A stretch of DNA of 64,000 bases from Tubulanus polymorphus (GCF_964204645.1 NC_134028.1:5580001-5644000), one strand, 5' to 3'; positions 25,200 to 64,000 are shown, numbered from the stretch's first letter. Notes: a model not told the origin generated them from the letters alone. Translations and numbers: made by a program.

Positions 25200-25955
25200 C
25201 CTTGTAGACTTTCGGACTAGTTACATGAAAAAAAAGACCACAAAATATTGTAAAATATAGTTCTTTCCAAAATCTCGATGTATTAAATTAGGCAGAAAAA
25301 ATAGATAAAATTATTCAACCTTGTAAACTTTCGGACTAGTTACATGAAAAAAAGACCAAATATTGTAAAATATAGTCATTTCCAAAATCTCGATGTATTA
25401 AATTAGGCAGAAAAAAATAGATAAAATTATTCAACCTTGTAAACTTTCGGACTAGTTACATGAAAAAAAGACCAAATATTGTAAAATATAGTCATTTCCA
25501 AAATCTCGATGTATTAAATTAGGCAGAAAAAAATAGATAAAATTATTCAACCTTGTAAACTTTCGGACTAGTTACATGAAAAAAGACCAAATATTGTAAA
25601 ATATAGTTATTTCCAATATCTCCATGTATTAAATTAGGCAGAAAAAAAATAGATAAAATTATTCAACCTTGTAAACTTTCGGACTAGTAACATAAAAACA
25701 AGACAAAATATTGTGAAATATAGTTATTTCCAAAATCTCCATGTATTAAATTAGGCAGAAAATAGTTAACCCCAATCAGTCACTTAATATGTGCTTCGAC
25801 TTTTTAAACGGTGAAAACGACAAAAAAAAATTGAAGTTAGACGAAATTATTAAACGTTGTAAACTTTCGGACTAGTTACATAAAAAAGACCAAATATTGT
25901 AAAATTATCTTCAACCTTGTAATATAGTTATTTCCAAAATCAGAATTAGGCAGAA
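25200..25955. repeat. Tandem repeat, about 116-bp unit, about 5.5 copies
   Basis: CCTTGTAAACTTTCGGACTAGTTACATG... at about 25200, 25319, 25435, 25551 and 25667, with a partial copy near 25856. Confidence 0.9.
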
Positions 25956-26017
25956 TAAAAGATTGTTTGAATGAACTGGAACCGAATTACCAATTATGTT
26001 CTTGGACTTAAAATAAA

Positions 26018-26116
26018 CGACCGCCGATCACGCAACTATATCTGTACTTCGATTTCCGATTTTGAAAAAACCGCCGTTTCGCTCCCGGCAGGTGTGGTAG
26101 GTTTGTAAGGGACACC
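26018..26116 (+). mobile_element. Short dispersed repeat, copy 2 of 4 (3'-truncated)
   Basis: CGACCGCCGATCACGCAACTATATCTGTACTTCGATTTCCGA...CGCTCCCGGCAGGTGTGG...GGGACACC. Confidence 0.8.
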
Positions 26117-26624
26117 AACTCAAACGAGAGCTTGAGGTCAACAAATCATCAGAAATCTGCTGATTAGAGAACAGCGCACAGAAGGGGCCGATTCGAATGA
26201 AACTCAAGAACCAACCAACTTAGGAGATCCGATAATGAACACAGCAATCATAGAAGGTACAACTTGAATTGAATTCATCAACTACCATGGAAGAGTCCAA
26301 CGAATTTAACTCATGAACCAACTTAGACAATCCTAGCCGATACTCGGCAATCTTGAAAGGTAAGTTGATTCACATGGGAATTATTATGATTAATGTTATA
26401 TGAAATATTGTGTGAATACAGGATATTGTCTTTAACTCTTTTCAGCTGAATCACATCTATGAGAAAAAGCCCATACTAAGATCAACTAACCATCTAGAAT
26501 CTACTGATTAAAACAGTCAGCAGAATGAATCCAACTTGAATTTAACTGCTGAAGTCTAGATGAGAAATTCGGCCAGCATCGGTTTATCGCTCAATGATGG
26601 ATTTCTTCTACAATTGGTGGAGCT

Positions 26625-27118
26625 GAGACATTGCGTCTCTCATTACAATTATTCAGGAGCAGCAGAGACAATGCGTGTCTTATAAACACTTATTCAGGAG
26701 CAGCAAAGACAATGCGTATCTTATAAACACTTATTCAGGAGCAGCAGAGACAATGCGTATCTTATAAACACTTATTCAGGAGCAGCAGAGACAATGCGTG
26801 TCTTATAAACACTTATTCAGGAGCAGCAGAGACATTGCGTATCTTATAAACACTTATTCAGGAGCAGCAGAGACAATGCATGTCTTATAAAAACACTTAT
26901 TCAGGAGCAGCAGAGACAATGCGTATCTTATAAACACTTATTCAGGAGCAGCAGAGACAATGCGTATCTTATAAACACTTATTCAGGAGCAGCAGAGACA
27001 ATGCGTGTCTTATAAACACTTATTCAGGAGCAGCAGAGACAATGCGTATCTTATAAACACTTATTCAGGAGCAGCAGAGACATTGCGTATCTTATAAACA
27101 CTTATTCAGGAGCAGCAA
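26625..27118. repeat. 41-bp minisatellite, about 12 near-identical copies
   Basis: Head-to-tail units of CACTTATTCAGGAGCAGCAGAGACAATGCGTATCTTATAAA with no spacers. Confidence 0.95.
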
Positions 27119-30100: not shown

Positions 30101-30337
30101 TTGTGACGGCATATATATTTCACCACCCGCTAATTTGATAGTTCCACTGATGATCAGTTTGATTTTTATATACAGAAGCAGAGTCCTGAATAGTTAACTT
30201 GCACCCAGTATCCTTCTTTTGGTGTTAACATTACATGATTAATTACATGAGATTTGTGTTTCTCCCGTAAAAATCATTGTTTTTGTTTTTCTTCATGCTT
30301 TCGGTAAATGTAGCCGATGACCTGCTGATCGTCTCTA

Positions 30338-30760
30338 AGGTTCGAACCCAGTAATTACTGATACTGGTTCAGAGTGGTCCTGATGCTGAATAGAGGATGC
30401 ACAGGGGTGTCCCGGGTTCAAACCCAGTAATTACTGATACTGTTTGAGAGTGGGCCTGATGCTGGATAGAGGATGCACGGGGTGTCTCGGGTTCAAACCC
30501 AGTAATTACTGATACTGATTCAGAGTGGCCCTGATGCTGAATGGAGGATGTACCGGGGTTTCCCGGGTTCGAACCCAGTAATTACTGATGCTGATTCAGA
30601 GTGGTCCTGATGCTGAATAGAGGATGTACGGGGGTGTCCCGGGTTCAAACCCAGTAATTACTGATACTGATTCAGAGTGGTACTGATGCTGAATAGAGGA
30701 TGTACAGGGGTATCCCGTGTCCAAACCCATCAATTGCTGTGATTCAGAGTGGTCCTGATG
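30338..30760 (+). repeat. Tandem array of tRNA-derived units (about 76 bp, about 5.5 copies)
   Basis: Each unit has an A-box-like TGRTTCAGAGTGG and a B-box GGGTTCRAACCC. The period is 75-76 bp. Confidence 0.75.
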
Positions 30761-31272
30761 GATCGGGTTATCGAGCTGCTCGCGTAATTTTTACTTGTCC
30801 TATCCAAAGAAAAATGCTTAGTCTACGTCAGATATTGCACACGGATTCTAGCAAACTTTCAATGTAACTAACCGATCGTTCATCGAATTTCGTATCAGAC
30901 GAGTGCCGTGCGCCCGACAATAGGTTTTTGGTTTCTCTCAGTGATTCAAGATGTTCTGTTCCAACGGTCACGAAATATCGAAAAAGTTTCGGAAGATGAT
31001 TTTTATTTGAGACAGATTGTAACACGATTTTTGACTTGATAACGATAAAGATAAAATCGACGATTAGAAATGATGAGAAATTAGCAGTAAAGTTTCATTC
31101 GGCTTGAACACGGTGTTTGCATGCAACTCCACCGCATCTCCACATTGCTTTTCTAGCTTTCGATGAATCTTCTGAAAACAAAAACAGCGAAACTTTATTT
31201 GTAAAATATAACATAAAATGTTAAAAATGGCTTCTTTTCCAAACTCGGTTGTCCCACGGTTCTACCTAATCT

Positions 31273-32181
31273 TTATGTACACATTTCTGAAGTCAATAAT
31301 CCAGATTCTTGAAGATATGTGCAGACATCTTTACGGCCTCGTAATTTGGCAAATGTAAAGACCGAAAAGCCCTTGTTGCTTTTAGTATTCATATTTGCGT
31401 TGCCGATTTCTAAGAGGTATTTACATATGGCTACGTAACCGTTGCCAGCAGCGTGGTGTAACGGGGTGCAACCTGAATTAGAAAAGAATTTTTTTAAACA
31501 TGGTCAAAATAATGACTGCTTGACTAAATATTGGCTAGTTCTGTATCGAGAAATGAGAAATGTTACATTATTCATTGTTGAAAATATTTAGCGCAATAAA
31601 AATCTGTAATTTTAATTTTAAAGGCGTCAATAAACGCTCAAGTTAGTTGTCTCGTTGAATATTGGTTAGTTGTGTATCGAGAAATAATCTGCTTACCTGA
31701 TATATCAGTACTGTTAACATCAGCACCTCCTTCAACGAGATAAATCACACACGCTAGCTGGCCATTCATGGCCGCTTTATGAAGTGGCGTATGACCAAAA
31801 CGATTACGTTCGTCTAAACACTGCAATTCAACATAAGAAAATAATCATGCAATGCGATACTGTTGTTTATCGACGACTTGTTCGTTTAGAAATCAGAATA
31901 ATTTTGATAGAGTATTCGTTGTGAATATAATAGTTTAACATCATCAGAAATACTTCCAGACCCCATCGATTTTTACCTCGCCAAAGCTTTCTATCAATTT
32001 CCTCAGAGCAGAAAGATCGCCACAAAACGCTGGAATCCATGGAAGAAAGATATGATTTCATTTAAAATGTGTACAGTATAACAATGTAGTATGTACGGAA
32101 TATAGCAGTTTATGTGAGACCAAATTATAATTGAGAACACGGCAGCCTTTGATAAACGATACCTGCTTCATGTAAATCCAT
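31273..32181 (-). CDS. Small ankyrin-repeat protein, about 131 aa, 4 coding exons (32181-32163, 32029-31977, 31820-31697, 31472-31273)
   Basis: Spliced protein reads MDLHEAAFCGDLSALRKLIESFGECLDERNRFGHTPLHKAAMNGQLACVIYLVEGGADVNSTDISGCTPLHHAAGNGYVAICKYLLE...; all intron phases are compatible. Confidence 0.85.
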
Positions 32182-33128: not shown

Positions 33129-35993
33129 ATGTCGGGAAGAATAACAGTTTTAAGTCAACGATCAATAAACTACTTCAAAAGGTTTGTATTCAATTTGAAT
33201 ATGTCAATTCTGAAGTAAAAATTAGGTCATTTTAATTTTGCTTAGCTTAACCATTTAACAAATTATACATATTCGATTGACGGCTTGCGTACGGACGTAC
33301 ATACCAAGTCTCGGGTTCATCGATGTCTTCAATGTTTTAGATATTTCAGTTGGTTTGGGTCAGTTGATTAGGGTGGTTTTCAAGGTAACTTTGTTGTTGG
33401 CATTTTCAGTACTGGTCTGCAATCATCAGTGAACCGGTATACTCTAGATACACTGTCCTACGCTGTCGAAGCTCGGGATGAGGGATTGGCAAGTCAGATC
33501 TGTCGCCATAAACTACCTCAAATATGTATTTACCCCGGTGACGATACCTGGCAGCAGTCACCACTATACGAAGCAGTCAACACGGGACAAGATAAGATAG
33601 TAGAGATCGTATTGCGTAATGTGGATCTGAAAGGTCTTGAGAAATTGATGGGAAAGTGTTTAGTAACTGCGATTGGGCAGCGAAACCGGCATATAGTCGA
33701 ATTACTTGTCAAAAACGGTTGCGATGTTAACTACGAATATGATGGCGAGTCACCTTTAGCTAGAGCTTGTATGGGTGGCTATATCGATATGGCTGAGTTT
33801 ATCAAAGATAACGGAGGTTTGATTTTTGGAGACGATGTACTGAAGTCTGCCGCAGGTCGTGGGTACGAAAAGGCCGTGGAAAAGATCATCGAATGGTCGG
33901 AACCGAGTCGTCACGAGGTTCTGGCCGCTATAAGAGAGGCTTGTAAGAAGGGGCAATGTCGGGTTATAGAGACACTGGTGGACTACTGTAAACCGTTTCC
34001 GGACGTGTCTGAAACTCTGCAGTGCGCATTAGAGGCTGTACAAACCGAGAAATACGAAGCGGTGAAACTTATATTAAATACGTCTCTCGATCGAGTCCCA
34101 GAACACGACAAACGCGACGAAATATTCCGCGAACTGCTCCGTTTAGTCGCCTCGGACGACAGACTCGTCCCGGAAGTGTTGTTGCACTTTGCTGTAATAA
34201 TTGAAAATGAAGACGCGATCGCCTTTTGTTTGGAACACGATTTAGAGATCGTCGAATTAGTGTACGACCAGACGGCGTTGCATACGGCTGTAACTTGTAA
34301 ACAAGACAAAATAATCGCTCTTTTATTAGAATCGATAGATGATGTAGAATGTCCGGATAAAAAGGGTCGGACACCTTTGATTCTGGCGTGCGAGGTTGGT
34401 TGTAGTAAAGAGTCCGTACAGTTATTACTAGACCACGGCGCCCGCATCAATGCCGTTGATAAGGACCTGAAAACGGCTCTTATTTCGGCAAGTGCTGCCG
34501 GTCACATGGATCTAGTCGATCTTCTGATAGAGTCACGGGCAGATATCGACGCCCGGGATAGCAAATCGATGACAGCTGCGCATCACGCGGCAGGACGCAA
34601 CCGCGCGTACGTTATTCATGAGCTGGTCGAAGCTGGTGCTGATCTTACTCGGTTTAGCGATAAGAACAACCTGCCGTTGCATGAGGCATGTAGGGCAGGT
34701 GGGGATGAAATCGTGGAAATGATACTCGATCAATTGAAATCAGGTAAAACAGAATTCGACCTCGATGTTGGAAACGTGGACGGATCGACTGCGCTTTATT
34801 TGGCAAGTGACGCGGGTGATTTGGAATCCGTTAAAATGTTGATTTCGGCTGGAGTAGATGTGCTTGTTTTGGATAAGAGTGGCAGGACGGCCCTTCATGC
34901 GGGCAGCTGGAAAGAAGACCTGGTGACGATTCTTATCGACGCGGGAATCGATGTAAATAGCGTCGATTGCGACGGAGAAACTGCGCTTTACAAAGCGTGC
35001 CAATGCGACCCCGAAAAGCCGAACGTAATTCGTGAATTTATCCCAGGTGGCGCTGACGTGAATATGAAGACGAACAACGGCGAAACCGCGCTCATTGCCG
35101 CATGCAAAAACATATCCGTGGACACCGTGGGATTGTTACTGGAAGCGGAAGTGGATGTGAATTATCATGCAGACGCTGTCGACTGCGCGTTGATGGAGCT
35201 TTGTAAATATTCCGCCAGGGGTCTCTCCTTGCAGTCGTGCCAGAGGCCGCATCTGAGACAAACGAGGATTGCCCAATGGCTCATAGAACACGGGGTCGAT
35301 GTGGTAACCTGGGGCGAAGCGGCTCTCGAGGAAGCGTGTTTCACGGCGAATAATATCTCACTGCTAAAAGCCCTATTAGAAAGGCTACCCCAGATTGTAG
35401 TGGAGAAATGGCTCGAGACTGACCCCGTTTTTAGACTTCTCGAACGCAATTTATCACATAATTTCAGGCATAAAAGATACGCCGTCGTTTACACGGTTAA
35501 TGCTGTCACGCTTCTAGCGACAAGTGGCGCGAAATTCGATTTGAATAACGATCGAATCGTTGATTTATACGAATGGAACTTGTTCGTATCCGTGGTGATT
35601 TACAGTCTGGCGACTAAAAATACCAATAGAAATATCGAGAACGGAAAGATACCAGCAGAATTATTCAAGTCACTGATATCGAACTCGGATATATTTACGA
35701 TAGAGCTGTTGTTGGAAAGCGGGTTCGAAATCCCCAATAGCGATGACGCGTACGGCAGATGGAGAGGAAGTCACCTGACAACTGAATGTCCATCGTACGA
35801 TGTCAGTTTTCTAGATGATACCAGTGTACATCAGTCCCGTAATGCCAGAACTCTAAAGTCTATCTGTCGTGTTTATATACGCCGCTTTCTGGGTATACAG
35901 CAAACTGGGAACACGTTGATTGCTAAAATATTTGAACTTCCTTTACCAAATCAGTTAACTGATTATTTGACATTTGTGAAATTGCCGAGGTAA
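33129..35993 (+). CDS. Ankyrin-repeat and SOCS-box protein (ASB-like), exons 33129-33181 and 33410-35993, about 878 aa
   Basis: Many G-x-T-[AP]-L-x-x-A ankyrin repeats. C-terminal SOCS box RTLKSICRVYIRRFLG...IFELPLPNQLTDYLTF. An upstream ATG exon splices in frame. Confidence 0.9.
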
Positions 35994-36161: not shown

Positions 36162-38467
<2,306 letters not shown>

Positions 38468-41829: not shown

Positions 41830-44800
41830 ATGTCTCTCGCCGACGAGCTGTTGGCAGATTTGGAAGATGGTGGTGATGACGGAGTTGAAGATGAGATGGA
41901 AGTCGGTTTGGAACCGATTGCCGAAATCGACGAAATCCGATCGATGGATACTCATGACGATCCGAAGAATCTATCGATACGAAGCATAGCTAAACTACGC
42001 GATAGTTCAGAGGTGAGAATTTAGATATGCTGTTAGATGATACGCGGAGATGTGAAAAAAGATTATTTCTTCAAAACTTTCTCTGGTAATTTAGTGAAAT
42101 GCTATTTTTTTTCAGTTAAAACGGGTTCTCAGCGATATCGCTGAATTTCAACAAGTCGCGAGACGGGAAGCAGGTATTTTCCGATCGAAAGATTTTGACA
42201 CTGTGCATTTAAAGAGATCTGGTTGAAATATCAGTTTTCTGTTTTCAGTGGCCGGGCCGACTGAAGCTGATCCCGAATATCAGCTGATCGTTGAAGCTAA
42301 TAACATAACTGTAGAAATTGAAAATGAAATAAGTAAGTAGTGATGACAAGAAATTCACAAAAAATGATTGGTGTACTGTTATTTGCTCTGATCCCAGTTT
42401 CATAAAGAATATGATGTTAAGTTTTTGGTTTAGTTGTGTTATAGGTTACTTCTTCATGTTTTAAATGTTGGCAACGATACAAACTTTCAGCTTAATATTT
42501 CTAGTCAGTATCCTGTCATTAGTTCAGTTTCACGATTGGATATTTTCAAACAAATAACCAAAAGTACATAGTATTTAAGCCCATTCTATTGTAAAGCGAT
42601 GACCACAATCAGCAAACAAACAGCTAACCCCAATGATGAGCTAACTAACTCAACTTAGTTATGAAAGTACCCAAGGAATAAGCGGTAACTGGGCATTGAA
42701 AAGGATGATGACTGTTCATCTCGATTAATGTATTATATTCTAGGTATCATTCACAAGTTTACGAGAGATCAATACTCGAAACGTTTCCCCGAATTAGAAT
42801 CGCTCGTACCGACACCCGTCGAGTACATGAGAACCGTCAAAGAGCTCGGTAATCACATCGACCAATCGAAAAACAATGAAACTCTTCAACAGATCATCAC
42901 ACCGGCTACGATAATGGTCGTCAGCGTTACAGCATCAACGACACAGGGGTATGTGTTTATCGTAAATAGCAGAATCCTTCTACCCATCTTCAGAGTTATG
43001 CAACTGTAACTCATTTTCAAACTCTGAAGATGGGTGGAAGGATTCAGCCTCAGAAATTTTAAAAAAAAACAGTTGTTTGAATTGATACTCTGGGTTACTC
43101 TTAATGTATTTATTGGTTGAGCCCATTTTCCTTTGAACTAAGGACCCCATTTAACAATGAGGTTTAAGTAAAAACTGATAAGTGAAAGTAAATGCGAAAA
43201 CCTGATATTTGCAGAACTAAATTAGATCGTGATGAACTCACGCGGACAATGGAAGCTTGCGATATGGTGAGTATGACTTTGAAATACAGTAGAACTCGCC
43301 CAGTTCGGATTTTTCAATCGACATTTCAAATGAAATATCTTGTCCAATTAACCAGCAACTACCAGGCTGGTGTTTAAATTGTTATTCGTAATTCGGATTT
43401 TACTTAAGTTCTACTGTAGATCTGACTGACTTTGAATCTCTTCAGTTTAGTTCTCTACAACAATTCACATATTACTGCATCTATGTCTTCAGATGATTAT
43501 TATCTCCTCTTTTAAGGCCATCGAATTAACGGACATCAAGATGAAAATATTTGAATATGTCGAATCCCGAATGACATTCATCTCGCCGAATTTAACGATC
43601 ATCGTTGGCGCGACAACCGCTGCTAAACTAATGGGTATGCATTGTATTCCTCCAATTCGTCCCTCGGTAGCCAGTTGGTTTAATATTTACTTTCCCAATC
43701 ATACCACATAAGGTGGAGTCTACTGTAATGAAAATGCTTTTAGCACCTTATCAAATGTTTCTACGTTGGATTTAAAAATGTGGAGCTATTTTAGAGTTAA
43801 GCCTAATTTTATTAACAGGTTTGGCCGGAGGAATGACAAACTTATCAAAGATGCCTGCCTGTAATATAATGATACTCGGATCACAGCGTAGAACGTTATC
43901 CGGATTCTCCAGTTCACAGAATATGCCGCATATGGGTTTTATTTACTACAGCGAATTCGTACAAGAACTTCCCCCGGTAAGAACCACAATCAATCGGAAG
44001 CGCATGCAGTACGAGGTGTATGATCGATACTGGATTAAGAATGATGAAATCCTTATAACTGGTTCGAAATTTAACCAACCCTGGTAGAATTTAATTTTAG
44101 TCATGGATTAATTTTTCTGTAGGATTTAAGGAAAAAAGCGTCTCGTTTGTTAGCAGCTAAATGTGCGCTGGCCGCGAGGGTCGACTGTTGTCACGAGAGC
44201 GTCGATGGAAAAGTCGGCGATGATATGAAAGCGGATATCGTTGCTAAACTCGACAAATTACAAGAACCGCCGCCCGTAAAAACGGTGAAACCGTTACCGA
44301 CTCCGATCGACGTCGCTCGCAAAAAGAGAGGAGGCAGACGGTAGGCTCGATTAGCTTCACAAATTCTCCTGTCTGTGGACCCAATGGTGATGGATCCAGC
44401 GGGCATCCGTGGTGGTCGGGACATGTTGATGTCCCTTAAAAATCCATCCTCAAATATTTCCGACTGAATATTTGCTGAAAAAAAACAAAATTAAGATTGG
44501 ACAAATATAGAAATACCGACATTTTGTAATGGCAATTAGCTGTTTCAGAAGATCTAAAAAATCATTGTGCATGTGAAAAAGGAAATTTCAGCAAAGCTTT
44601 TAGAAAAAAGGCCATAAATTTCTTAAGTTGACACTCCCTTTACTTTTGACCATGGATTTGCCATCACAGTTCCACAGAATGTAGAATGATTTGAAATATT
44701 TTTCTATTTCCAGTGCAAGAAAAATGAAAGAGCGACTCGGTATCACTGATTTCCGTCGACAAGCGAATAGAATGAACTTTGCAGATGTAAGATTATTGTG

Positions 44801-46442: not shown

Positions 46443-47712
46443 TTATGGTTTCGCCTCTTCAATTGCGCCTGCTGCTTGCTTCTTCTGTTGTTCATGCCTA
46501 GGATTAAAGAAATGTCAATTACTTTCAGAGAAACCTGCATGCAGTTTAATTCTTGATCTCAATTGATTCTATTCGAAAAGATTTTTCTTAGCTCGTCTTC
46601 AAGACAACATAGTATAAGCGGCATGAGCCCTCAATTACCTCTGACTTACACCAAACAAGCAATTCATTTTGTGTGACCTAATTAGGCCTGGACAGGTTTT
46701 ATCCTCAATTGACTACGTACGTGTAAATTCTGTATAACTGATATAATCCAGTAGCACCGACGAAAATATTTACGCTGAACAAATTCCAGTTCTTAGGAAT
46801 AATGACCATCGAATATCTCGACCAAATTATGCCTGCGTAAAGACGAATTACAACATTACAACATGTACCAGTTAATCTAATTCGATAATCTTGTATTGCT
46901 ACTTAGAATTTTCAATGTTTCCATGGTGAAGGAATTAGAAACCTGGGCTGGGATTCATAGATGTGGAAGGAAAATAGTCCCTGGGAATATTTTGAAATTC
47001 GTCAGTTATAACGACTATGGAGGTTGTCACCCAGATTGAAGATTCACTCCTAGGGATAACTTTGATACTCAGTCTATGAAACCGGGCCCTGGAAATTGCA
47101 AAATGTTCCCAGGTAGGGTATTAAGCTGTTTTGATAAATCCAGACGGCATTTGAGCCAAATTAATTTACCAGTTGCTGCTAAAGCGGTCGATTGCGTTAA
47201 ACTCAATTTCTCAGCAGGACGGTTTATATCGGCTAGACCAGCAATCACTAGACCCTAGAAATATAATATCAAAAAAGGATTTATATGATTTAGAAAAAGG
47301 TCTCTAGAACAGGTACAAGTACAAGTGAAGCCCAACACCTCTGCGAGGCAGTTGGAAGCATTGTTTCCTGAAACCATGTTTGCTGGTGCTACTACGAGGA
47401 GGTTACCGACATGGACACTTACCCATTTAAATGTTGGTGCCCAAAAGAATATTGTTTTCGGCCCTATAAGAAATAAACGACGATACGATTGAGATTGGTG
47501 AAGAAATAGGGAGTGATTAGACTTAGACTAGAGTGAGACAGAGAACATGTAATGATTAATGAATGAATTATTGGAGTGGGCCGGGGACGGGGTGTCAACT
47601 TGCTTTCTTCATTGAGTTTTTACAGACCTGCCGGATGATTCCAAAAAGGTAAAAATTTAGCGGGTACTACTTTATCAAGTGCCCGTATACACGATCTAAA
47701 AATTGTCGCCAT
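46443..47712 (-). CDS. MPC2: Mitochondrial pyruvate carrier 2, 5 coding exons
   Basis: Spliced protein reads MATIFRSCIRALDKVVPAKFLPFWNHPAGPKTIFFWAPTFKWGLVIAGLADINRPAEKLSLTQSTALAATGIIWSRYSMVIIPKNWNLFSVNIFVG... It is absent from the ORF track because the exons are short. Confidence 0.95.
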
Positions 47713-48430: not shown

Positions 48431-49937
48431 ATGGATAAAACACTTATTCTAGTCGTCGCGTTGATGTGTTCCGTTGATCTATCGTCAGGTACGTGTCGTC
48501 CTGCTGCGCTCGTATTTCCATCGTGAGCACTTTTCTGTAGTTAGATACGAGAGCCCTTATACCCGCATCGTATCACAACGACATTGTCTGAACAAGGTAC
48601 AAAAGTCTATCTCTATCATCGAGAGGGTGTTAGGACGCATCCAAAAATATGCACCAAATCAACTACATATTTTCATAATAATTTAGCTCTTTTACGAAGG
48701 ATTACTATTTTGTACATTCAAAAAATCTAGATTTACATTTTTTTATGATTCAAAATATAACAAGTTTTGATTCTACAGGAAACTGGAAGATATTTGGCGG
48801 AATCCAAGTGCTTTCCGACCAAGCGTGGCCGCATCAAGTTAGTTTACAATACAATAACCGCCACGCATGTGGCGGAAGTATCTTAGATAGGAACACCATC
48901 CTTACTGCTGCTCACTGCTTCCAGAATACCGGGTACGATATATTGAAAAGATCCTCAGTCATTTATGAAATGCATTTTGACATAAAGAGAGTTTTTGATA
49001 TGTCTTTTGGTAAAGAGCTGATCCGTATTTATGGAGAGTGGTTGTCGGCACGATAAATCTTAGAGATCCTATGCGCCAGATCTTCGCCGTACAAGATATC
49101 CGTGTGCACGAACTTTATCAAAGCCCACAAAAAGGTAAAACAAACGCGGAAATGTCACTAGCTTGATTCGCAGCAATCGTAACAAACTATCAATGTTCAG
49201 AGTTTTGCTAGTGTATAAAAGCTTCAAGAACAATTTGTATAACAAATCATACTTAATCACAAACAGGTAATGATGTGGCGATTGTGAAGTTGTCGGAATT
49301 TCTACAGTTTTCACCGACGGTCACAGCAACACAACTACCTTCATCGAAATCCGACAACAGTGACGTCGGCACGACTTGCTACGTATCCGGCTGGGGCTAT
49401 ATCAATACACCCGGTCCGTCTGGTGAGAAACCGTTCATAAGAATATTAAAAAATATTAATATTAAGACTTCAAGTTGCAATCGCATTGCTACCATACGAT
49501 TCTATACTTATAGGAATTTTGTCGGACCAACTGACGTACACAGATCTGCAAATTTGCAACACAAATTGGTGCACTCAGTACTTCGCCGACGCGCAACCAC
49601 CGGTGGATGATTCAATTTTGTGTGTCTTTGGCTTGTATGGAAAGAACGCTTGCATCGTAAGTCTATAGCACAAAATAAATCAAATCAAATTATCATATCT
49701 TCCGAATGATAAACGTTAAGTGATAATGACAAGAGGGTAGACAGTTTTAAGTAGATAAAAATCGCTTTTTTTCAGGGAGACTCCGGCGGGGCGCTGATGT
49801 GCCCGAGAGCTGGCTACTACGTGGCGGAGGGGATCGTGTCCTGGGGTAGAATCGAATGCGGTTTGGATGTATCGGCACCTGTTGTTTACACAAGAGTTTC
49901 ACATTTTCTCGATTGGATAGAAGCGAATCGGCATTAA
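48431..49937 (+). CDS. Secreted S1A serine protease (catalytic domain only)
   Basis: Signal peptide [19 protein letters not shown]. Activation site WK|IFGG. Motifs [27 protein letters not shown] and NACIGDSGGA. Stop codon at 49935-49937. Confidence 0.9.
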
Positions 49938-54400: not shown

Positions 54401-57400
54401 TAAATTTCAAATTCTACAAGCAGAATTTCTCAGTGAAACCACCAAAGCTAACATCAGGGTGATGAGTAAGACTTTTGTTGTGCTGCTTGTAAACTTTCGA
54501 GAAACCAGGTTTTGCTTGCGGTGGATTTTCAACGAATATAACAAAAACTATCGTTTTTCAAAGGGATCTGGATTTTTGCTATATTGCGGTATCTGAAGGG
54601 AATAACGATTCTAAGATAAATTGTTTCAAAATTTTTCAAATCTTTCACCATAAAAATAGAGACTCGTTCAGGCCCATTGGAGTGCACATGGACACAAGCT
54701 TCGGCGTTTTGATGGAATCGCGATAGAGGTCGAGAAGATACACAAGATGAATACGTGGGAAATCCCATAATAATTTCAGCAAAAGACGAAAATTCTTGTA
54801 GTAAATGAGTAAATATATTTCGAGCAAGGTTTCGGCTCATAGCTATCATCAGGCATCCTGAGGAGGAAATATCGCGTAGAATTACCACACTATGACGTGG
54901 AGAACAGATAATAAGTTTTACACCCACGTCGCGTATTTAGATTTCAATTCATGATATATAAAATTCGACTTTACTCTTTTAAGTTCGACATGTAGTGGAT
55001 TTTAAACTTATCAAATATCGTGTAATTCTATTCTATATCGGTATGCCTGATGATGGCTAGAATTATTGTGGGATTCCATTAGGTATAGAATCGAAATATT
55101 TTTTTCAAGTTTCTAAGTTATCAAAATGGTGTTTGTGGGCTGCATATATATTCATATCATACATACATATCTACATAATTGTAATGGCCTACAAGGTTAT
55201 TGACTTGGTTCGCACGCAGCGATGCAGAAGGACAGAGTATATCAAAGATACAGTGGGGGGAAATCGAAGAGAAATTGTAACGATGTGGCTCAGATAATAA
55301 CAGTCAGGTATATGGAGATTATCGGTTAAGTAATTAGTGATCCAGAAAGAGAAAGTAGGGATGATAAATATGATTTGTCTGGGTCTCTTTGATGTAGGAA
55401 ATTCGATCAGTGTTTGATCGACGTATGCGATGCACTGTTTATGTAGACGGATCACCTTGATTTGAATATATATGTATACGTATATATGATTAATACATAT
55501 ATCTATCTACATATATCCGGGAGTACGAAACATTGCTGCACCCAAAATGTAGATTCGAGCTCATTACCTCAGTAACAGGTCTTATAACTTTGAATATTAT
55601 AACGGTCTAAAATTCGAACATTTACATGTGATGTGCACTACGTCATCACTTTTGGCGTTTTAAAATAACAATTACAATTGTAAATTTATATATTAGCGTT
55701 TGTTCTATTATCTAATAAGTTTCACGACTTATTTTCTATTCAATGAAGAATTTTCAAAAGATTTTTGATAATGATTTTTGAGTGGATGTGCACTACATCA
55801 TCAATATTGAGGCTAGACTGGTTGCCGGTCAATTAGAATCATTGTCGATATATTCAAATGCAAAATAACTTTATTGGTCCTTAGAAACACATCATATCAT
55901 TAATGACAGTATTTAGCGATGTGTGTTATTATCAAGACGTCCGTAGACTTTCAAGTTAGTTTTCTTGTCGTATTTTTCGAACGATAGAATGAGACTTTTA
56001 ATTAGCACAACATAAAAGCAAGCAACATGTTTATTTTGAGGCAGTGTTATACAGCGTTATTTTCTCTTTCTCGTCTGTGTATATTTGTTTTAGAGCTGCT
56101 CGCAAACTCCGCCGCTTCTTCTCTCAATTCTCTTTGTCCCCAATGTTATTTGTTTTACCGTTCTAGGTGTGTTTGCCGTTTGAAGGCTGTCTGGCATTTT
56201 CTGGCAGTGTTGCCGCCGGTGTACTGACGGGCATAAACGAATGCAAATACCAATTCAAATGGGAGAAATGGAATTGTTCTGTGAGCGCGTTTGATATATT
56301 CAAAGATCAAAATCTTTCTCCGTGTAAGTTTTTGGTTGCAGGTTTGTCGAAATTCTTAAATTGAAAATCTATTCATTCGCAAAACAGAATGTTACAAAAT
56401 ATGCATCACATCGATTAGAAATAAATACAAACTGCTGTCACTTCGTCCTTTCAGTTCACTGTCAATAAGTAAAAAAAGATGTCATTTGCAGTGAATTTAT
56501 CTTAAATCAAAAGATGCTACAAAATGCAGATACATAAAAATGATATAAGATATACAGTCGTATACATTTCATCATATAAAGTTAAATAATCGAATTAATT
56601 ATGAACAGGAATAAACTGACAATAAAAACTGATGAAGTAAAACATAAGTTCTACACAAACAGAAATTCTGTTATTTCGACCGTCAATCACGCAACTATAT
56701 CTGTACTTCGATTTCCGATTTTAAAATCAAGCCCCCTTTTTCGCTCCCGGCAGGTGTGGTGGGTTTGTAAGAGACACACAATCAAAACAAATCAAACGAA
56801 ACCTACCAATTAAATGGATAATAGGGTCAATCCCTATCTAAAGATTCTTGAAAAACCAAAAACAAAGATTGATCCTGATTTCTTTATCAAGTTTTAGGAT
56901 GAATAATATGTATATAGAGATTGTACACAGTTCATGATATATGAAATGTAAAACGTGTGTGTCAATCTGACTTCTGTTATCATATTTTCTTCGATGATGG
57001 AAGAATTGTGTAATTTGTATTTTTTAGCCAGCCGTGAAACAAGTTTTATCTACGCTATAAGTTCGGCGGGAGTCATGTTCACGTTGACGAGAAATTGTAG
57101 TTTAGGAGAGATTGATAAATGCGGTTGTGACGATACTAGAAAAAAAGGCAAGCGAGGTGCGAATTCGTAATCCTCATTCATGTCGGTCTCTTAGAGATCA
57201 TAGTCGTAAGAGTAAAGTTGGTGGTTTTTTATTCATAAAAAGACGTCGAAAATTCGTATTTTTCGGTGTTTTCCACCTATTGAATTTCATTCCTAGGGCA
57301 CAAAGACTGGAAATGGGATGGATGCAGCGATAATGTTCAGTTTGGCGAAAGAATTGCTAAGTTAGTGATCGATTCTACGGAGAATGGTAAAGACACTCGC

Positions 57401-58842
57401 GCTATGGTTAATTTGCATAATAACAACGCCGGTAGACAGGTACGTTCTCGAATATGTAGGATTGATTATGTAGGCAGCACTCAAACTCTAACCGACGAGA
57501 CTAGTGAAAACAGGCTAACATTTAAGATAGCTTAAGACTTACAGCTCAGAAATCGGACTAGTTCTACGTCCGCCATCGGGTCTATAAATGAAATAGGCTC
57601 ATCTTAATACCAGTCATAAGTTGTTAGTTCGTGTGGTTCAAATGAGCTTAGATGAACATCATAGGCGCGGATCCAAGGCCATTCAGTGACTACAGCGTCA
57701 GCACAGTGAAAAAAGGGCACCAACTTTGAAAAGGGCCAGTATTAATGCCCAGCGAGTGAGTTTGAGTGCCATTTATTGGTATAATGCCACTGAATTTGCC
57801 TTCATATTCAATTTGCTTGTGCCTTTTTTAGATTTTTTGCGAAATTTGCCCTTTTTCGATTTAATCTATAGAGCAACAATAATGTCTCTTTTAGAATAGT
57901 GCCCTTTTGAGTAAAGGAAAATGACTTAACTTGTCTTGATTTGGGGCAATTAATTTTCATTCACATTTTGCTTTAGTCCTAGTACAGAAAGGCATTATGG
58001 GGCACAAATTGTGTGCCCTTTTATTTACTCTTTTCCCAAAACAAAAAATTTTCAAGGGTATATGAAAACTGCGACTACCGCATGTGCTGCATGTGCGATA
58101 GTCTGGATCCGCGCCTGCGACAAGGCCTACCAGATTTGGCCTATGAAAAGAGATTAATATTCAATTATAAAATTACATGTATGGAAGCCCCCGGTGCTCG
58201 AACCAATGCGACTATTATTCTTTCCAACTTTAATCCGTGTGGTTATGATTTTAGGCGGTGATTAAGAAGATGAAATTGACGTGTAAATGCCACGGTGTTT
58301 CTGGAAGCTGTACCACGAAGACCTGTATACGACAGCTTTCGGATTTTAGGACCGTCGGGGATTACTTAAAGCGAAAATATCGCCGGGCAAAACGCATCGA
58401 TCTGCAAGGCGGCGAATTGAACCAGGGAAACTTGGCGCGGCACATCGCTCATTCCGGAGTGAAAGATACCGACATGTTGTATTTGGAAGATTCTCCGGAT
58501 TACTGTATGGCGAACAATACCGCCGGCACATACGGTACGTTAGGCCGCGAATGCGTGCGCCCGAGCAAAAAGAAAGGTAAACGCAATCTGACGACCGCCG
58601 AGAAACGGTCGTGTAAAGTACTGTGTCGCGACTGCGGCCTGACCGTGAAAAAGAGCGTCGTGCCCGTCGAGTCGAAATGCAACTGTAAATTTCACTGGTG
58701 TTGCGAGGTCACGTGTAAAACGTGTCGCATGAAAGCTACGAAATACATCTGCACCGTGAAATCGAACGGCAAAACGAAGAAGCCGAAGAAATCGTCGAAA
58801 AGTAAAAAAAAGAACGCGAAAAAGGCTGCCGGTAAAACGTAA
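51448..58842 (+). CDS. Wnt8: Wnt ligand of the Wnt8 subfamily; exons 51448-51518, 51920-51950, 56167-56323, 57028-57156, 57297-57439, 58255-58842
   Basis: Signal peptide, then the short Wnt8-type N-terminus [11 protein letters not shown]. Wnt8-like motifs [24 protein letters not shown] and [25 protein letters not shown], plus [10 protein letters not shown] and [13 protein letters not shown]. Confidence 0.9.
54825..54856 (-). ncRNA. Degenerate Penelope-type hammerhead motif in Wnt8 intron 2
   Basis: Minus strand reads ATGC-CTGATGA-T-AGCT-ATG-AGCC-GAAAC-CTT. A partial inverted copy, ATGCCTGATGATGGCTA, lies at 55043-55059. Confidence 0.4.
56675..56850 (+). mobile_element. Short dispersed repeat, copy 3 of 4 (Wnt8 intron)
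   Basis: Same core as the other copies, followed by an (AATCA/AAAC)-rich tract and the hairpin ATAGGG-TCAAT-CCCTAT. Confidence 0.8.
57663..58116. mobile_element. MITE in the last intron of Wnt8
   Basis: Perfect 13-bp terminal inverted repeats AGGCGCGGATCCA and TGGATCCGCGCCT. Confidence 0.7.
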
Positions 58843-60899
58843 TTGTCGTGCGCGCTAATGGACGAACTCAAATGAACCCAAAAAACGTGCGATGAAAAAA
58901 TACTTGTATTTTGCGAATTGGTGAATATTGTGGATCATGGATTTGTGTATAATAATCTAGTGTCTCAAAGTGGACACAACAATAACGATGTTATTATTTA
59001 TTGTATCTCTGCGTATCGGAATATTGTGTCGAATTGTTTCTTTAAGAAAAAAAAACGACTGTCAGACATGATACCGTATTTCTGCGATCACCGTGTATAT
59101 GTATATTCTGGCGATTTGGTACTGTAACTGCTAAAATCGATCCTATATATTTTGTTACTTCAATTCGGCGTTGATTTTGGACTGTTGTCGGAAACGTCAC
59201 GAGGATCGGTTTGACGAGGCACCGCCGCCGCCGCCGCCACCGCTGTCGCGAATGCTGTAGAATCTAAAACTTTTAACCTCGAATAAACTTGAAGAATAAT
59301 CTTGACTCGTGAGTTGTTTTGTATCTTCCAGATCGGGAATTAACATTCCGCAATAAATAATCTATACATAGTAACTCCGCTTTCAGCCTACAAAAACAAA
59401 TTGCCGAATTTTTTTCTCATTCCGCATGTCGGCAAGGGCGTATGTTTAGGTTACCATGGTAACGTATCCGTCGAAAAATGTCTGGCACAAACGTCGAATG
59501 AAAATGTGTAGGTTATCAATTAGAAAATGAAATTGCCAGATACGAAGTCACCGAACGGGATTTTTATTGGTGCTGAGCTGCGTGTTTTTTTTTTTTTCAA
59601 ATGTATCCGAGGAAAAAGGAATTTTCGTAATATCGTAAAATGACGCCAAAAATGACATCCTGCGGCCATATTTAGGTAAAAGATTAAATTTAAGAAAGGT
59701 TCAAGAATTTGCATGTTTACCTTATGAAACTTAACCTAAAATCAATATGGCATCTTGCCATTTAAACAGGCCGACAAAATGGTGATATACATGATCTTGT
59801 CTGAGGATACTATGGGAACTATTATGACGCATACGAAGCAACAAAAGTTTCAATAACGCCCCGATTTTAGCCCCCATTTGCCCAGGTGGGAGTTTCGAAT
59901 TGGAGGTATCTCAGAATCCGAATAAAAGAAAGATGAAAATGAAAAATAAAAACATATTCAATAATGTATTTTCGTATACCATTTATTTCTAGAATTTCAG
60001 TAACATTGAGCCGTTGTTGTCACGTCACTGTCTATATTGATGCCGATAGATTGATGTCTGACCTTTCGCAGAATAACCAATAAGTCATGAGTCAAATTGT
60101 GGTTTTGAATTTTCTTGAATCAGAGGGAATTCCCCAAGGCTTTTTATAGATGACGATAATTGCATGTGTAAAGGTCATGGTTTGATAAATTACCTTAATT
60201 ACGCCGTCAATGCGCATCTTTATTCCAGGTTACATCGTAAACAGACCTTGCTTTATAGCATAGCTGCGAGTACGGCGGGCTAATAATCTTAACGCGGGAA
60301 TGTTATCCAACAAATGAAGCAAAAATTAGCCACTTTTTAACGATTCGGTCGAGACGTTTGAACCTGAATATTTTTACGTGGGAAGGAATTCGATTCGCCC
60401 GAGGTAAACCAGTGCTGGTTGTGACGATTGAATTACAATTATATAGTTGTTTCCATGAATAAATAATGGACTTAATATTGCTCATATATACGTGGATTGT
60501 GATTTATTGACTCAGAGACAAACAACGTTTGAAGATAAATATAAATCAAGATCGACACAGGCGCAGACAGACGACAGTCGGCCTTCATTCAGCGGAAGCG
60601 ACACAACGCTACATAAAACGGCTATTGTCATTTGAGAACCTATATGCATTTCTCGCGTACCGCATCTGTGTCATATTATCTTGAGCAGACGACTTGGATG
60701 TAAAATACATCGTAGATGAGCTAACTGACTGACACACATTTTGGACCGAGAATTTTTACGCGCTTGTGTTTGCGGAAACAGTTTGGTTTACGAACGAGTA
60801 AACGCCTGACAAATATTTATTTCATAACCGTGAATTAAACATTGCGAACGGGTCGCGTTGTGTTTAAAAAGAGTTCGTGCGATAGTAATATTCTACGTG

Positions 60900-60940
60900 T
60901 ATATAAAAACCGGCTGACTTAGTGTGCGTGTAGTCAGTGG
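60900..60940 (+). promoter_or_regulatory. TATA box and initiator-like element of the chorismate-mutase-like gene
   Basis: TATATAAAAA at 60900-60909, TCAGT about 30 bp downstream, and an ATG at 60981. Confidence 0.55.
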
Positions 60941-60980
60941 ATGACAAGCCCCGGCGACAGTAAGGTCACAGATCTGAAAC

Positions 60981-63059
60981 ATGGTTACATCGGTTCTACT
61001 CGGTTTGATGCTGACTTGTTGTTTGTGGAATTTCGTTGATGCTGGTTGTCGGTAAGTTACTCCCATGGGCCCAGTTCCACAATCGAAACGAAGAAGATAC
61101 CACACTAGATCAAGACTCTTATGAATAATTTGTTGACTTTGTAGCAACGAGGGGCTTAGAATCCAATTCTATTTCTTCATGATAACTTGTTTTGGCGTCA
61201 GAGATTTGTTACATTTTTTCATGAATTCAATCGCTTTTCATATATGGACATCCTGGTTTCTAACCCGCACGCGAAAACCGGTGAAATTTTCGCCTTCCTC
61301 CCTGAAATGGCATTGAAATTTTGTACAATAGACACGAAACTACCCACATTTAAATAGAAATCCAACAGGATGTATAATTGCACAAAGAATCTACTATACC
61401 GGCTATTAAACGACCGAATCTATATATGTATTTGCACCTATATATTAAATATATCGGACTGCGCACATTATTGGATGTTTGTTGTACTGTGCGTCTCATA
61501 ATTTATGCCTTATCAAAACCTAATATTTGTTCATGATTTTATCTGCTACCATTTATATATCCGATAAGACCCAACAACATCCAATCCGTATACGTGTAAC
61601 ACAGTTTTTTCAATATTGCGACAGCAATTGGATCCCGTTTTTTTACAGTTATGAGTTAAGCTTCGAATTGATCAGTTCATTTTATATAATCAGAAACTTC
61701 AAATTTAAATTTCGTGGTCGAGTGAGGGTATGTAACAGTATCGCACACAATTAATGTTTTCAAGCTAGATGTATCTCATATATGTAATTGCATCGTATGG
61801 GGTGGATTGATATCTGATACGAAATTGATTTTATATTTGATGAATACAGATTAAGTAGCAAAACATTGACGATCACGTTATTATATCCAACGGCACGACA
61901 TCTGAATTTCATGGGACGCCACAGTGGTCATTTCACCGTAGACACAAGCGCAACCAAATCCACTGTCACGAGATGCTACACATTAGGTTATATATAATAA
62001 GGCGAACTCGTTACATAGACGTGTCTATCCTGTCGTGATCAAATTTGATAAGACATTCGAAAATCTATCAATCACCAAGTTCACTGTAAATTCGACAGCC
62101 GATCACACAACTATATCTGTAGGCGCTACTTCGATTTCCGATTTCAAAATCAAACCCCCCTGTTTCGCTCCCGGCAGGTGTGGTGGCTATGTAAGGGACA
62201 CCGAATCAAACCAAAACAAATCAAACTAAATCTATCTATCAAATAAGTAACAGGGTAATCCATATTTTAAGATTTCAAAATTAACATCCGACGTTTAAAG
62301 ATGGTTTGGCCATTGATTGACAATTGAGTGTTGCGGTCTCGTCTGTCCAAGGGATGTTGATGATTTATCCATACATTCCTAGAGGGAAACTATGCATATC
62401 TATCTTTCAATACTTTTTCCAGTTCTGACTGCGGTATCGACGACGCGAATCTAGATTGTTGGCGGGATAATATAGACTTCTATTCGAACGCGATTCTGCA
62501 GTCTGTCAACCAGCGAGGAATCGTAGCTAATCACATCGGAGAATGGAAAAGAAAGCGAAATATGGCCATATACGACCCGGTCAGAGCGGCGGCGGTTATT
62601 GAAAAAATAGCGGATAAAAACCCTGGACCTATGCCCGATAGCGCTATAAAAGTCATATTTACTGATATAGTCAACGAGGTACGTATTGCGCTGAAAACAA
62701 ACGTAATTATTTCTATTCAGATAAGCTTTTATTGAGTAGTGCTGACGTCAGCATTCATGACAGCATCGTGCGTAACGGTTCTAATCTTATCGTTTCAGAC
62801 GACAGTTTACGAGCAGAACTACCACGCCAAACCGCCCAAGTTCGTTTGTCCGGATAAAACATCGTGTGAATCGAATACGGCAGCTGCCGCGGTTGGAATG
62901 CAAGAATCTCAAAGACTTTTCAAAGTCGTCATTATTCTACAGAGTATTATTCTAATAGCCCAATTTCTAGCGTTAGGCATCATGGGTTATTATCTGTACA
63001 AAGAACGTCGCAACAGGCAACGAGCACCGGAAGATAGTGAACTGAGGCCGTACAAATAA
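60981..63059 (+). CDS. Type I membrane protein with an AroQ (type II) chorismate-mutase-like ectodomain; core exons 60981-61051, 62423-62678, 62799-63059; possible extra exons 61649-61727 and 61859-61986
   Basis: Signal peptide MVTSVLLGLMLTCCLWNFVDA|GC. Domain LDCWRDNIDFYSNAILQSVNQRGIVANHIGEWKRKRNMAIYDPVRAAAVIEKIADKNPGPMPDSAIKVIFTDIVNE|TTVYEQ. TM helix VVIILQSIILIAQFLALGIMGYYLY followed by KERR. Introns are GT-AG and phase-compatible. AATAAA at 63121. Confidence 0.8.
62091..62275 (+). mobile_element. Short dispersed repeat, copy 4 of 4, inside an intron of the chorismate-mutase-like gene
   Basis: Same core as the copies at 17.2, 26.0 and 56.7 kb. Confidence 0.8.
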
Positions 63060-63628
63060 TGTCAAGGTCACATTTCGGCCGGCAATAATTGAAAAAGACA
63101 ACAAAACGGGAAACCTTTTGAATAAAATGCTACCTCTTTGTCTGCTAGAAATTTGATATGATATTTTCAACATTATTTTGGTTGTTATATAAATCAACAA
63201 ACGATATTCTAAGATATTTTCAATAATACCGTTAGAAAAAAATCTATAGAAATTTATGACAAAAGAAACGACTGTATGATAAGATTAACGGCAAATTTAT
63301 ATAGCATGTATTTTCACATTTACAAAATGTATGTAATTTCAATCTGTAATATTGAAACACAATGTAAATATTTATAGATATATACACATACAATAAGTGA
63401 TGTAAACATTTATTTGTTATGTAAAGCTTATATTCATATGTTGATGTTTCAATGGAAAACAAGCGATATTTTGTAAAAAATAAAACATTTAGATTCCATA
63501 ATATTCAATAATGAAGTTGACAGTCGATTTTGATTCAGGAAAGATGTGAAAATCATATGGAATGATCTTTGAAATCCCATTTCTCGTCGTTTTTCTGGAT
63601 TTCAACATTCCTCTTGTCTGCTGGCCAT

Positions 63629-64000
63629 TCACAGCTCGCCCCGTCGGCTATCCGCCACTTTACTGGTCAAGACAGCGTATTCAATAAATTGTTGCAGTGT
63701 GCGCAAATCAGCTTCCATGTAGCTATTCCGTTGCGCATCTTTTGCAATGATAGTACGAAATATCTCAGCCAGACCTCGAAATCTGACAACGAAGCTTGTG
63801 ACGTCACTCATATGCAGACTAATAACTACGGAATCGTCATTTTCCAGAACAAGGCCTCCGGCAAATAGGAAACCTTGCATCTTTGACTGCGATTTATTTT
63901 TAGAAGCCCTTTCGATGAATTTCGAGTTAACGTTTAATGGCGCGCTTGTATACACGATGTGAAAATAATCGGCTCGCATGATAACTAAATGAGCGGCATG
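63629..64000 (-). CDS. 3' end of an unidentified gene, open to the window edge; possibly a beta-propeller glycosyltransferase/glycosidase-like C-terminus
   Basis: Uninterrupted frame of at least 123 codons: HAAHLVIMRADYFHIVYTSAPL...FLFAGGLVLENDDSVVISLHMSDVTSFVVRFRGL...*. An AT-rich 3' UTR follows. Confidence 0.6.
   Translation of the reverse strand, partial: HAAHLVIMRADYFHIVYTSAPLNVNSKFIERASKNKSQSKMQGFLFAGGLVLENDDSVVISLHMSDVTSFVVRFRGLAEIFRTIIAKDAQRNSYMEADLRTLQQFIEYAVLTSKVADSRRGEL

Follow-up and report, generated by a model that had tools for sequence, protein, structure and literature searches.

We describe a real, well-supported and unusual gene family in ribbon worms, represented in the nemertean Tubulanus polymorphus by a spliced gene that encodes a chorismate mutase (CM) domain of the AroQ type between a predicted signal peptide and a predicted transmembrane (TM) helix. 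The reading that we favour, to which we give a probability of about one half, is that its product is a cell-surface dimeric enzyme that would rearrange or degrade a chorismate-type molecule supplied by microbes or by food.

The gene lies in a window of 64,000 nucleotides (GCF_964204645.1, NC_134028.1:5580001-5644000), in which a sequence-only reading had proposed that phase-compatible GT-AG introns join a signal exon, a CM exon and a TM exon (Table 1). This structure is borne out: the three joined exons give a 588-nt frame and a 195-residue protein that is, letter for letter, RefSeq XP_074648200.1 (P0001), the uncharacterized protein LOC141903785 on a 27.4-Mb contig, and the junctions are seen in contigs from sequencing runs. 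A stop codon stands in frame immediately 5' of the ATG of exon 1. Exon 2 encodes Arg38, Arg55, Lys66, Asp75 and Arg78 plus Cys27 and Cys36, and a sequon (N108-x-T110) is split by intron 2.

Table 1. Features of the CM gene and its neighbour, in positions of the window.
Feature	Position	Strand	Evidence
Last coding exon of the neighbouring host gene, Wnt8-like	58255..58842	+	Pfam wnt, E 1.7e-42
Probable 5' UTR (transcribed at least this far)	60603..60980	+	X2 contig continuous with exon 1
Coding exon 1: Cys23, preceded by a predicted signal peptide of about 21 residues	60981..61051	+	junction joined in X2
Intron 1, GT-AG, phase 2, 1371 nt	61052..62422	+	joined in X2
Host interspersed repeat within intron 1	62093..62256	+	further copies in the window; X1 depth
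Coding exon 2: AroQ domain from helix 1 through most of helix 3	62423..62678	+	Pfam CM_2, model
Ala79 codon, position of E. coli Glu52	62586..62588	+	alignment to PheA
Intron 2, GT-AG, phase 0, 120 nt	62679..62798	+	joined in X2 and X5
Coding exon 3: remainder of helix 3 (T110, E114), stalk with Cys126/Cys132, predicted TM helix, basic tail, stop	62799..63059	+	
Core of the predicted TM helix (residues 152-170)	62925..62981	+	hydropathy, AlphaFold2 model
3' UTR, lower bound	63060..63297	+	spliced X2 contig ends at 63297

Profiles and fold agree on the assignment of exon 2 to the AroQ type, which had been made by eye. Exon 2 matches Pfam CM_2 (PF01817) with 54.4 bits (E 1.5e-14, cut-off 27), and the match at residues 38-114 of the protein scores 54.7 bits against the same curated cut-off of 27, as expected of the AroQ class. 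The matches of the exon among solved structures are the CM domains of Bacillus, Thermus, Geobacillus and Listeria DAHP synthases. Scores stay below the cut-offs of all NCBIfam CM equivalogs (best, TIGR01801 CM_A, 58.8 vs 106.35; TIGR01807 CM_P2, 46.8 vs 69.55) and, for exon 2, of the AroQ-gamma model TIGR01806 (18.6 vs 74.15); the NCBIfam isochorismate lyase model is absent from the matches at E 0.001. The AlphaFold2 model from a 90-row alignment (mean pLDDT 84.5; a single-sequence model was poor, with 52.6, and was left aside) has helices at residues 34-68, 76-88, 96-116 and 142-183. Its top Foldseek match is 5gmu, the CM domain of Bacillus AroA(G), with an rmsd of 0.7 A over 83 columns and a TM score of 0.93 by target, and the first 15 entries of a wide structural search all have the chorismate-mutase fold. 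The earlier impression of a likeness to PheA and to the Bacillus AroA(G) domain is matched by structural Z values of 11.0 (1ecm) and 11.1 (5gmu), followed by PchB (8.7), Burkholderia CMs (6.7-6.8) and the maize enzyme (6.0); a Z below 13 is weak alone for helical proteins, and here it agrees with the HMM. The predicted protomer has three helices and is superposable on EcCM-type chains, as in the AroQ-alpha subclass, and not the six of an AroQ-gamma protomer.

The domain is also predicted to dimerise. Residues 22-135 reach an ipSAE of 0.88 as a homodimer vs 0.02 for the best control, a value that may reflect likeness to solved AroQ dimers; the mark used is reached by 20 of 30 solved homo-pairs and by 1 of 23 single chains. 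The runs agree in at least 92% of contacts, with pLDDT 87-88 and antiparallel helix-1 contacts. As the predicted interface takes in residues 23-29, 124-127 and 132, cysteines near the N-terminus of one chain may come close to the stalk cysteines of the other and form inter-chain disulfides.

The gene is not alone. A phmmer search of 1.84 billion representatives gave 802 matches at E 0.001, the best 150 of which were used; five matches reach E 5e-21 or better, and the next has 7e-13. The family includes P0002 (LOC135498284 of Lineus longissimus, 62% identity to P0001), P0005 (a second Tubulanus gene, LOC141900212, on a separate contig, 53%), P0003 and P0004, also among the top five, and P0151 and P0153, added by later searches. 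Three of these proteins (P0003, P0151 and P0153) have two CM domains. P0004 has the look of a translation of unspliced genomic DNA: its likeness begins behind Phe-Phe-Ser and breaks off at IVNE, where Val-Ser follows, the residues to be expected if the same two intron positions had a pyrimidine tract with AG and a GTAAGT donor. With exon 2 or residues 24-125 as the query, word-index protein searches matched only the protein itself, metagenome contig scans gave no family match, and an atlas feature search gave no usable match. An alignment search added P0153 and missed P0002, P0004 and P0005 from its own query, which makes it non-exhaustive.

Hydropathy is compatible with the predicted signal-peptide exon, and hydropathy and model agree with the prediction of a TM exon with a short basic tail. 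The hydrophobic core of exon 1 has a hydropathy of 2.64 over 11 residues and the C-terminal helix of 2.57 over 19 residues, with 5 Lys/Arg in the 15 residues after the TM core. A Pfam NCE101 match over the TM region fell below its cut-off and was rejected. A signal-like N-terminus combined with a C-terminal hydrophobic helix is found in all three named members (P0001, P0002, P0005) and in none of 149 non-family proteins; signal-like N-termini occur in 6 of the 149 outside matches, none of which groups with the family with support. Cys36 is present in 10/10 family domains vs 1/149 others, and the Asn108 sequon in 7/7 first domains vs 1/149. Both features would fit a secretory route. P0002 and P0005 have the same hydrophobic N-terminus, five cysteines, sequon and C-terminal TM segment, and the cytoplasmic tail of 15-25 residues is unconserved across the three. 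The two-domain relatives end in a hydrophobic stretch that has no cytoplasmic part and is, by eye, like a GPI signal; P0153 also begins with a signal-like stretch.

The pocket is where the sequence-only reading needs correction. It had placed five residues at the right spacing, and in this it was right: Arg11, Arg28, Lys39, Asp48 and Arg51 of E. coli PheA correspond without gaps to Arg38, Arg55, Lys66, Asp75 and Arg78, a one-residue gap coming after this stretch, in the loop between helices 2 and 3. Yet it overstated the intactness of the site, in which the consensus Glu52, itself not universal, is replaced by Ala79. At this position 144 of the 149 outside domains have Glu and 1 has Ala or Val; within the family, Glu is found in P0005, Ala in P0001 and P0002, and Val in the others. 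PheA Ser84 and Gln88 correspond to Thr110 and Glu114 (Thr in 27/149 and Glu in 93/149 outside domains), and His61, Trp65 and Thr110-Thr111 are pocket-side residues specific to the family. The position-52 Glu is reported to contact the 4-hydroxyl of chorismate, to be 81% conserved in PF01817 and to matter critically for mutase efficiency (PMC12329711). The same source describes an exported CM that has Val at this position as fully active (kcat/Km 300,000 per M per s), with trace lyase activity as well; a single swap does not switch specificity. We found no primary E52A data in the literature consulted. On these comparisons Ala79 probably lowers the odds of an efficient mutase, without ruling it out.

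The rest of the family indicates that the pocket has been kept. First, the equivalents of Arg38, Arg55, Lys66, Asp75 and Arg78 are present in 4/4 single-domain members, at 47-60% pairwise identity. Second, the P0005 paralogue keeps the complete Arg11/Arg28/Lys39/Asp48/Arg51/Glu52/Thr84/Glu88 set. Third, Lys39, the transition-state residue, is kept in 7/7 intact-site family domains. Fourth, the tandem relatives have divided the site between their domains: domain 1 (3/3) keeps Arg28, Lys39, Asp48, Arg51, Thr84 and Glu88, with Ser or Lys standing in place of Arg11; in domain 2 (3/3) Arg11 is kept, and Arg28, Lys39, Arg51 and Glu88 have been lost. Because Arg11 is supplied by the partner chain in AroQ dimers, as PMC5526877 describes, these residues total exactly one composite site, which speaks for continuing selection on the pocket. 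This one-site pattern, which comes from two independent sequences (domain 1 of P0003 and that of P0151 are 99% alike), argues more strongly than any other sign that the pocket matters.

We propose that a bacterial AroQ gene was captured, likely before the main ribbon-worm lineages split, and that disulfides and an N-glycan gained after the transfer would stabilise the ectodomain. The predicted type I topology would put the domain outside the cell, or in the endosomal or gut lumen, where an intertwined homodimer would form two composite pockets, each with Arg38 from one chain and Arg55, Lys66, Asp75, Arg78, Thr110 and Glu114 from the other. Following an early duplication, the paralogue that keeps Glu52 would be the likelier classical chorismate-to-prephenate enzyme, and the Ala79 copy, having lost the 4-hydroxyl contact, may be a slower mutase or may favour an analogue, for instance isochorismate. 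The worm would likely gain by clearing a precursor or signal of microbes from the surface of its body or gut, or alternatively by salvaging it as prephenate/phenylpyruvate. Counting against an enzyme are the Glu of nearly all outside domains at position 52, where the tolerated natural exceptions carry Val, not Ala; the NCBIfam equivalog scores; the unconserved tail; and the closest solved relatives, described as low-activity regulatory domains (PMC5526877). Animals also lack the pathway, and we know of no source of extracellular chorismate for a predatory worm.

These regulatory relatives lead to the alternative that survives best, although we still hold it to be unlikely: a dimer that binds chorismate, prephenate or a small dicarboxylate without useful catalysis, as a scavenger or as a sensor signalling via a partner membrane protein, comparable to the regulatory part that the CM domain plays for DAHP synthase in Bacillus AroA(G). 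Domains of the AroA(G) type are the best matches in both sequence and structure, and they are reported to bind chorismate, citrate and chlorogenic acid at 480-725 uM (PMC5526877). A mere binder would also account for the loss of Glu52 while the carboxylate-binding arginines stay, and the one-site tandem pattern speaks for a kept pocket, not for catalysis. Against a binder stands Lys39, present in all seven intact-site domains, and the short unconserved tail, together with the tandem forms that have no cytoplasmic part, suits an ecto-enzyme better than a receptor.

An improbable alternative is that the pocket was re-purposed for an animal or dietary ligand outside the shikimate pathway, be it for a new pericyclic or lyase reaction or for a carrier role in mucus or gut. 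The long stem branch of the family (1.43 changes per column), its specific pocket-side residues, the Ala or Val at position 52 in most members and the want of a known substrate supply all point this way. Against it stands the full residue set of P0005 and, among the literature consulted, AroQ proteins of known chemistry act on chorismate or isochorismate. A purely structural dimer, serving as an adhesion or mucus protein and binding no small molecule, is very unlikely: the pocket arginines do form inter-chain contacts in AroQ dimers (PMC5526877) and domain 2 of the tandem relatives keeps the fold without them, but exactly one full site is retained across both tandem domains and the pocket residues are all kept in the diverged single-domain members.

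The phylogenetic analyses delimit the family better than they reveal its source. The 10 family domains form one clade with a support of 0.999 in a FastTree analysis of 161 domain rows and of 100/100 in an IQ-TREE analysis of 75 rows and 93 columns (10 family, 63 of the 149 outside domains and 2 E. coli rows; P0037, which has no CM domain, was left out of the trees). P0005 is sister to the rest of the family (99/80), the tandem domains nesting with P0001 and P0002 on long branches, from which the duplication likely predates the split between Tubulanus and Lineus. This split, between Palaeonemertea and Pilidiophora, is the deepest of the nemertean phylum. Since the family is common to these two distant nemerteans, the transfer is likely ancient. 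No supported sister group outside the family emerged in 500 bootstrap trees, which placed it with large and unstable sets. The best outside match, P0006, comes from a Rhodothermales metagenome-assembled genome and its relatives are mostly Acidobacteriota, which names no donor. The tree rows were picked by similarity to the query, and 14 outside proteins were looked up, with 2 of 148 tied to a named bacterium; we presume most outside domains to be bacterial because of their architecture and because the atlas neighbours of the family fall in clusters that are 90-100% bacterial. Hence, the suggestion of a horizontal transfer keeps its basis in the two distant nemerteans and the prokaryote-type next relatives, whereas the donor branch has no support. 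We consider one old transfer from a bacterium, followed by the gain of the signal exon, anchor, cysteines and sequon, as most likely.

An older eukaryotic family, either inherited and widely lost or passed from another eukaryote, would dispense with a direct transfer from bacterium to nemertean. The range of the family would be wider if P0003, P0004, P0151 or P0153 were not nemertean; the trees had no known fungal, plant, nematode or insect CM, and few of the outside proteins are tied to a named bacterium. Still, we judge this origin improbable: 1) the fold is AroQ-alpha, which resembles bacterial domains (Z 11) far more than it does the plant enzyme (Z 6); 2) the atlas neighbours are bacterial in the proportions given above; 3) the five closest of 1.84 billion representatives, the only ones at E 5e-21 or better, include three named ones, all nemertean; and 4) the tandem domains nest with P0001 and P0002 to the exclusion of P0005, albeit on long branches.

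The gene is resident in the animal genome, as had been argued from its surroundings. Contigs of run X2 join both introns exactly at the predicted GT..AG ends, and contigs of run X5, from a separate study, join intron 2, which provides the junctions in RNA that the gene model called for; X2 and X5 are taken as RNA because the joins are exact, and neither joined form is among the joins listed for X1 (DNA-like) or X6 (raw DNA reads). Over 62280-63600, X3 has two short unspliced pieces, and X7, X8 and X9 have none. Contigs cannot fix the starts or ends of transcripts, but they do cast doubt on two signals attributed to the gene. A TATA-like motif is indeed present at 60900; it lies inside the X2 contig 60603-61051, which enters exon 1 at depth 401 (43 for the intronic contig), so it is probably part of the 5' UTR and its role as a promoter is doubtful. 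Likewise, AATAAA is present at 63121, and again at 63479 and 63683, and the 3' spliced X2 contig extends past the first of these to 63297, which makes its role as the poly(A) signal doubtful.

On the DNA side, X1 depth is 39-44 over the single-copy Wnt parts, the spacer and the CM gene alike, and one X1 contig (59234-62156) links the 3' region of Wnt8 to exon 1 and into intron 1. X6, from a third study, covers 30/30 bins with allelic differences, and the coding polymorphisms are synonymous in the 3/3 checked among the alleles listed. The repeat in intron 1 is, as supposed, a host one, with copies at 56677-56827 (in a Wnt intron), at 26018-26140 and, inverted, at about 17168-17279, and with an X1 depth of about 24,000 vs about 40. 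The identity of the neighbour also stands: among solved Wnts its last exon is closest to Wnt8 (E 1e-44 vs 9e-29 for Wnt5a). Pfam matches in 9 of the 102 scanned frames of the window (ankyrin repeat, trypsin-like, Nop, mitochondrial pyruvate carrier, Wnt) show that the remainder carries ordinary animal genes. Contamination or misassembly can therefore be set aside almost entirely, even if X1, the best DNA-like run, may itself be the assembly source and no contig among those listed spans alone the full stretch from Wnt8 to the gene: spliceosomal introns are removed in two studies, the linking contig has single-copy depth, the raw reads of a third study fill every bin, and there is a homologue on a 29-Mb Lineus contig and a paralogue on a separate 32-Mb Tubulanus contig. 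On the three points on which the initial reading could have failed, the CM_2/AroQ match, the splicing and the assembly, it has held.

A broader picture can be drawn, tentatively and with more doubt than confidence, in which ribbon worms, and possibly other marine eukaryotes, run a cell-surface chorismate surveillance from a bacterial enzyme captured long ago: one paralogue would be a true mutase, the Ala79 copy would be tuned to isochorismate or to another precursor of siderophores, salicylate or quinones, and the tandem form, held by a lipid anchor, would have independently re-invented the exported six-helix, one-site CM. If true, this would be a host defence or a nutrient capture aimed at the microbial shikimate branch point in a non-herbivorous animal. 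For the published animal CMs, a plant host or a nutritional symbiont is a ready supplier of substrate. The present family persists in predatory marine worms of two lineages that parted early, where it would have been refitted for the cell surface and has duplicated into forms with Glu and forms with Ala or Val. This would mean that chorismate-type molecules occur in an extracellular pool, so far overlooked, where animals and microbes meet, or else that the AroQ pocket has a new ligand. The role of exported chorismate mutases has been called controversial (PMC10520331), and the family offers a small testable handle on what they do, with the Glu and Ala paralogues of Tubulanus as a natural pair for the role of Glu52.

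We found no paper on a nemertean CM family or on a type I AroQ-alpha layout in marine predators, in a search by title or opening of the abstract, outside which lay subscription papers and bioRxiv supplements that may list the gene among transfer candidates, and the supplement of a nemertean toxin proteo-transcriptome (PMC9132205) has no 'chorismate', 'CM_2' or 'PF01817'. The architecture is in this sense undescribed, as first supposed, although the gene was already modelled, uncharacterised, in RefSeq. The systems that it resembles most are the AroQ-alpha CMs (AroA(G) 5GMU, Thermus 2D8D, Geobacillus 5J6F, PheA 1ECM), with which it shares the three-helix protomer, as modelled, and Arg11/Arg28/Lys39/Asp48/Arg51, at 17-31% identity in structural alignments, and would share the intertwined dimer that is predicted for it. 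The bacterial AroQ-alpha proteins are cytoplasmic and fused to DAHP synthase or prephenate dehydratase, whereas the Tubulanus protein is free-standing, with a signal peptide, five extracellular cysteines, a sequon, an anchor and Ala for Glu52, the outer features being predicted. The exported AroQ-gamma enzymes of bacteria, fungi and nematodes, as PMC10520331 presents them, have features that are predicted for the Tubulanus protein too, namely a signal peptide, disulfide stabilisation and a place outside the cytoplasm, with no clear substrate supply in either case, and in one of them that has been studied well Val replaces Glu52 (PMC12329711). Yet their protomers are six-helix and soluble, the Tubulanus protein being three-helix and, by prediction, membrane-anchored, and structural Z is 6-7 to them vs 11 to AroQ-alpha; the two-domain relatives seem to have arrived on their own at a protein with six helices and one site. 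PchB, the isochorismate pyruvate lyase, has the AroQ fold (Z 8.7) and an aliphatic residue for Glu52 (Val55; Val at position 52 is also given in PMC12329711). It differs in having Ala at Asp48 and Tyr at Ser84, according to that source, and of its pocket pattern Ala51/Val55/Tyr87 only the Glu loss is common, with Asp75, Ala79 and Thr110 here. Because the Asp48 and Thr84 positions are mutase-like, Ala79 would not make the protein a lyase.

Among animals, which are described as lacking the shikimate pathway (PMC4828791), the horizontally acquired CMs of Hoplolaimina nematodes (PMC4828791) and of the whitefly Bemisia tabaci (PMC4607527) are likewise bacterial-type genes with introns. They are reported to cluster with Burkholderia (PMC4828791) and to be assigned to Enterobacteriales (PMC4607527), respectively. 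Most nematode copies carry signal peptides, and the CM of Nacobbus aberrans is described as having two N-terminal TM regions and no signal peptide (PMC4828791). A membrane-bound animal CM thus has a precedent in the Nacobbus protein, which has its TM regions at the N-terminus and not the type I layout predicted for the Tubulanus protein. The Hoplolaimina and the Bemisia hosts feed on plants or house a nutritional symbiont.

The active sites of the family differ in what they retain. Glu52 (E. coli PheA numbering) is kept in P0005 (LOC141900212), a Tubulanus paralogue of the main gene that is encoded on another contig and splits off before the Tubulanus-Lineus pair. The relatives P0003, P0151, and P0153 each carry two domains and a C-terminal end that resembles a GPI signal. 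The active-site losses are complementary between their two domains, which suggests, as far as residues can tell, that both would contribute to one composite site. An N-x-T sequon (residues 108-110 of the main protein) is found family-wide, is interrupted by intron 2 (62679-62798), and has as its Thr the pocket residue equivalent to Ser84.

Other features of the window
Feature	Position	Strand	Remarks
Uninterrupted frame, many ankyrin repeats	33372-35990	+	873 codons
Further ankyrin piece	31276-31503	-	
Trypsin-like exons, Nop-domain gene, mitochondrial pyruvate carrier-like exon	37346-37684, 48682-49607, 42689-44084, 47258-47527	-, +, +, -	
Tandem arrays	25169-27205, 30331-30784, 19428-20071, 21108-21369		units ~116, 41, 76, 160, and 107 bases
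43-base stretch skipped in some contigs	58929-58973		directly after Wnt8-like stop
Open frame at window end	63632-64000	-	123 codons; weak coverage by X2 contig, 63638-63936

The stretch beside the Wnt8-like gene is skipped in contigs of both the DNA-like run (X1) and the run taken as RNA (X2), and is therefore probably a deletion allele rather than an intron. The terminal frame, without a match in a Pfam scan of the window's frames, probably represents the final exon of a gene that runs convergently. The long ankyrin frame has no introns, in a region that is otherwise intron-rich.

Outside the family, P0007 (above the cut-off of the NCBIfam model CM_P2), P0014, P0031, P0059, and P0152 are short three-helix chorismate mutase proteins, presumably bacterial, with N-termini resembling signal peptides; P0061, judged by eye, is likewise. 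They may be exported enzymes of the AroQ-alpha, not the AroQ-gamma, type.
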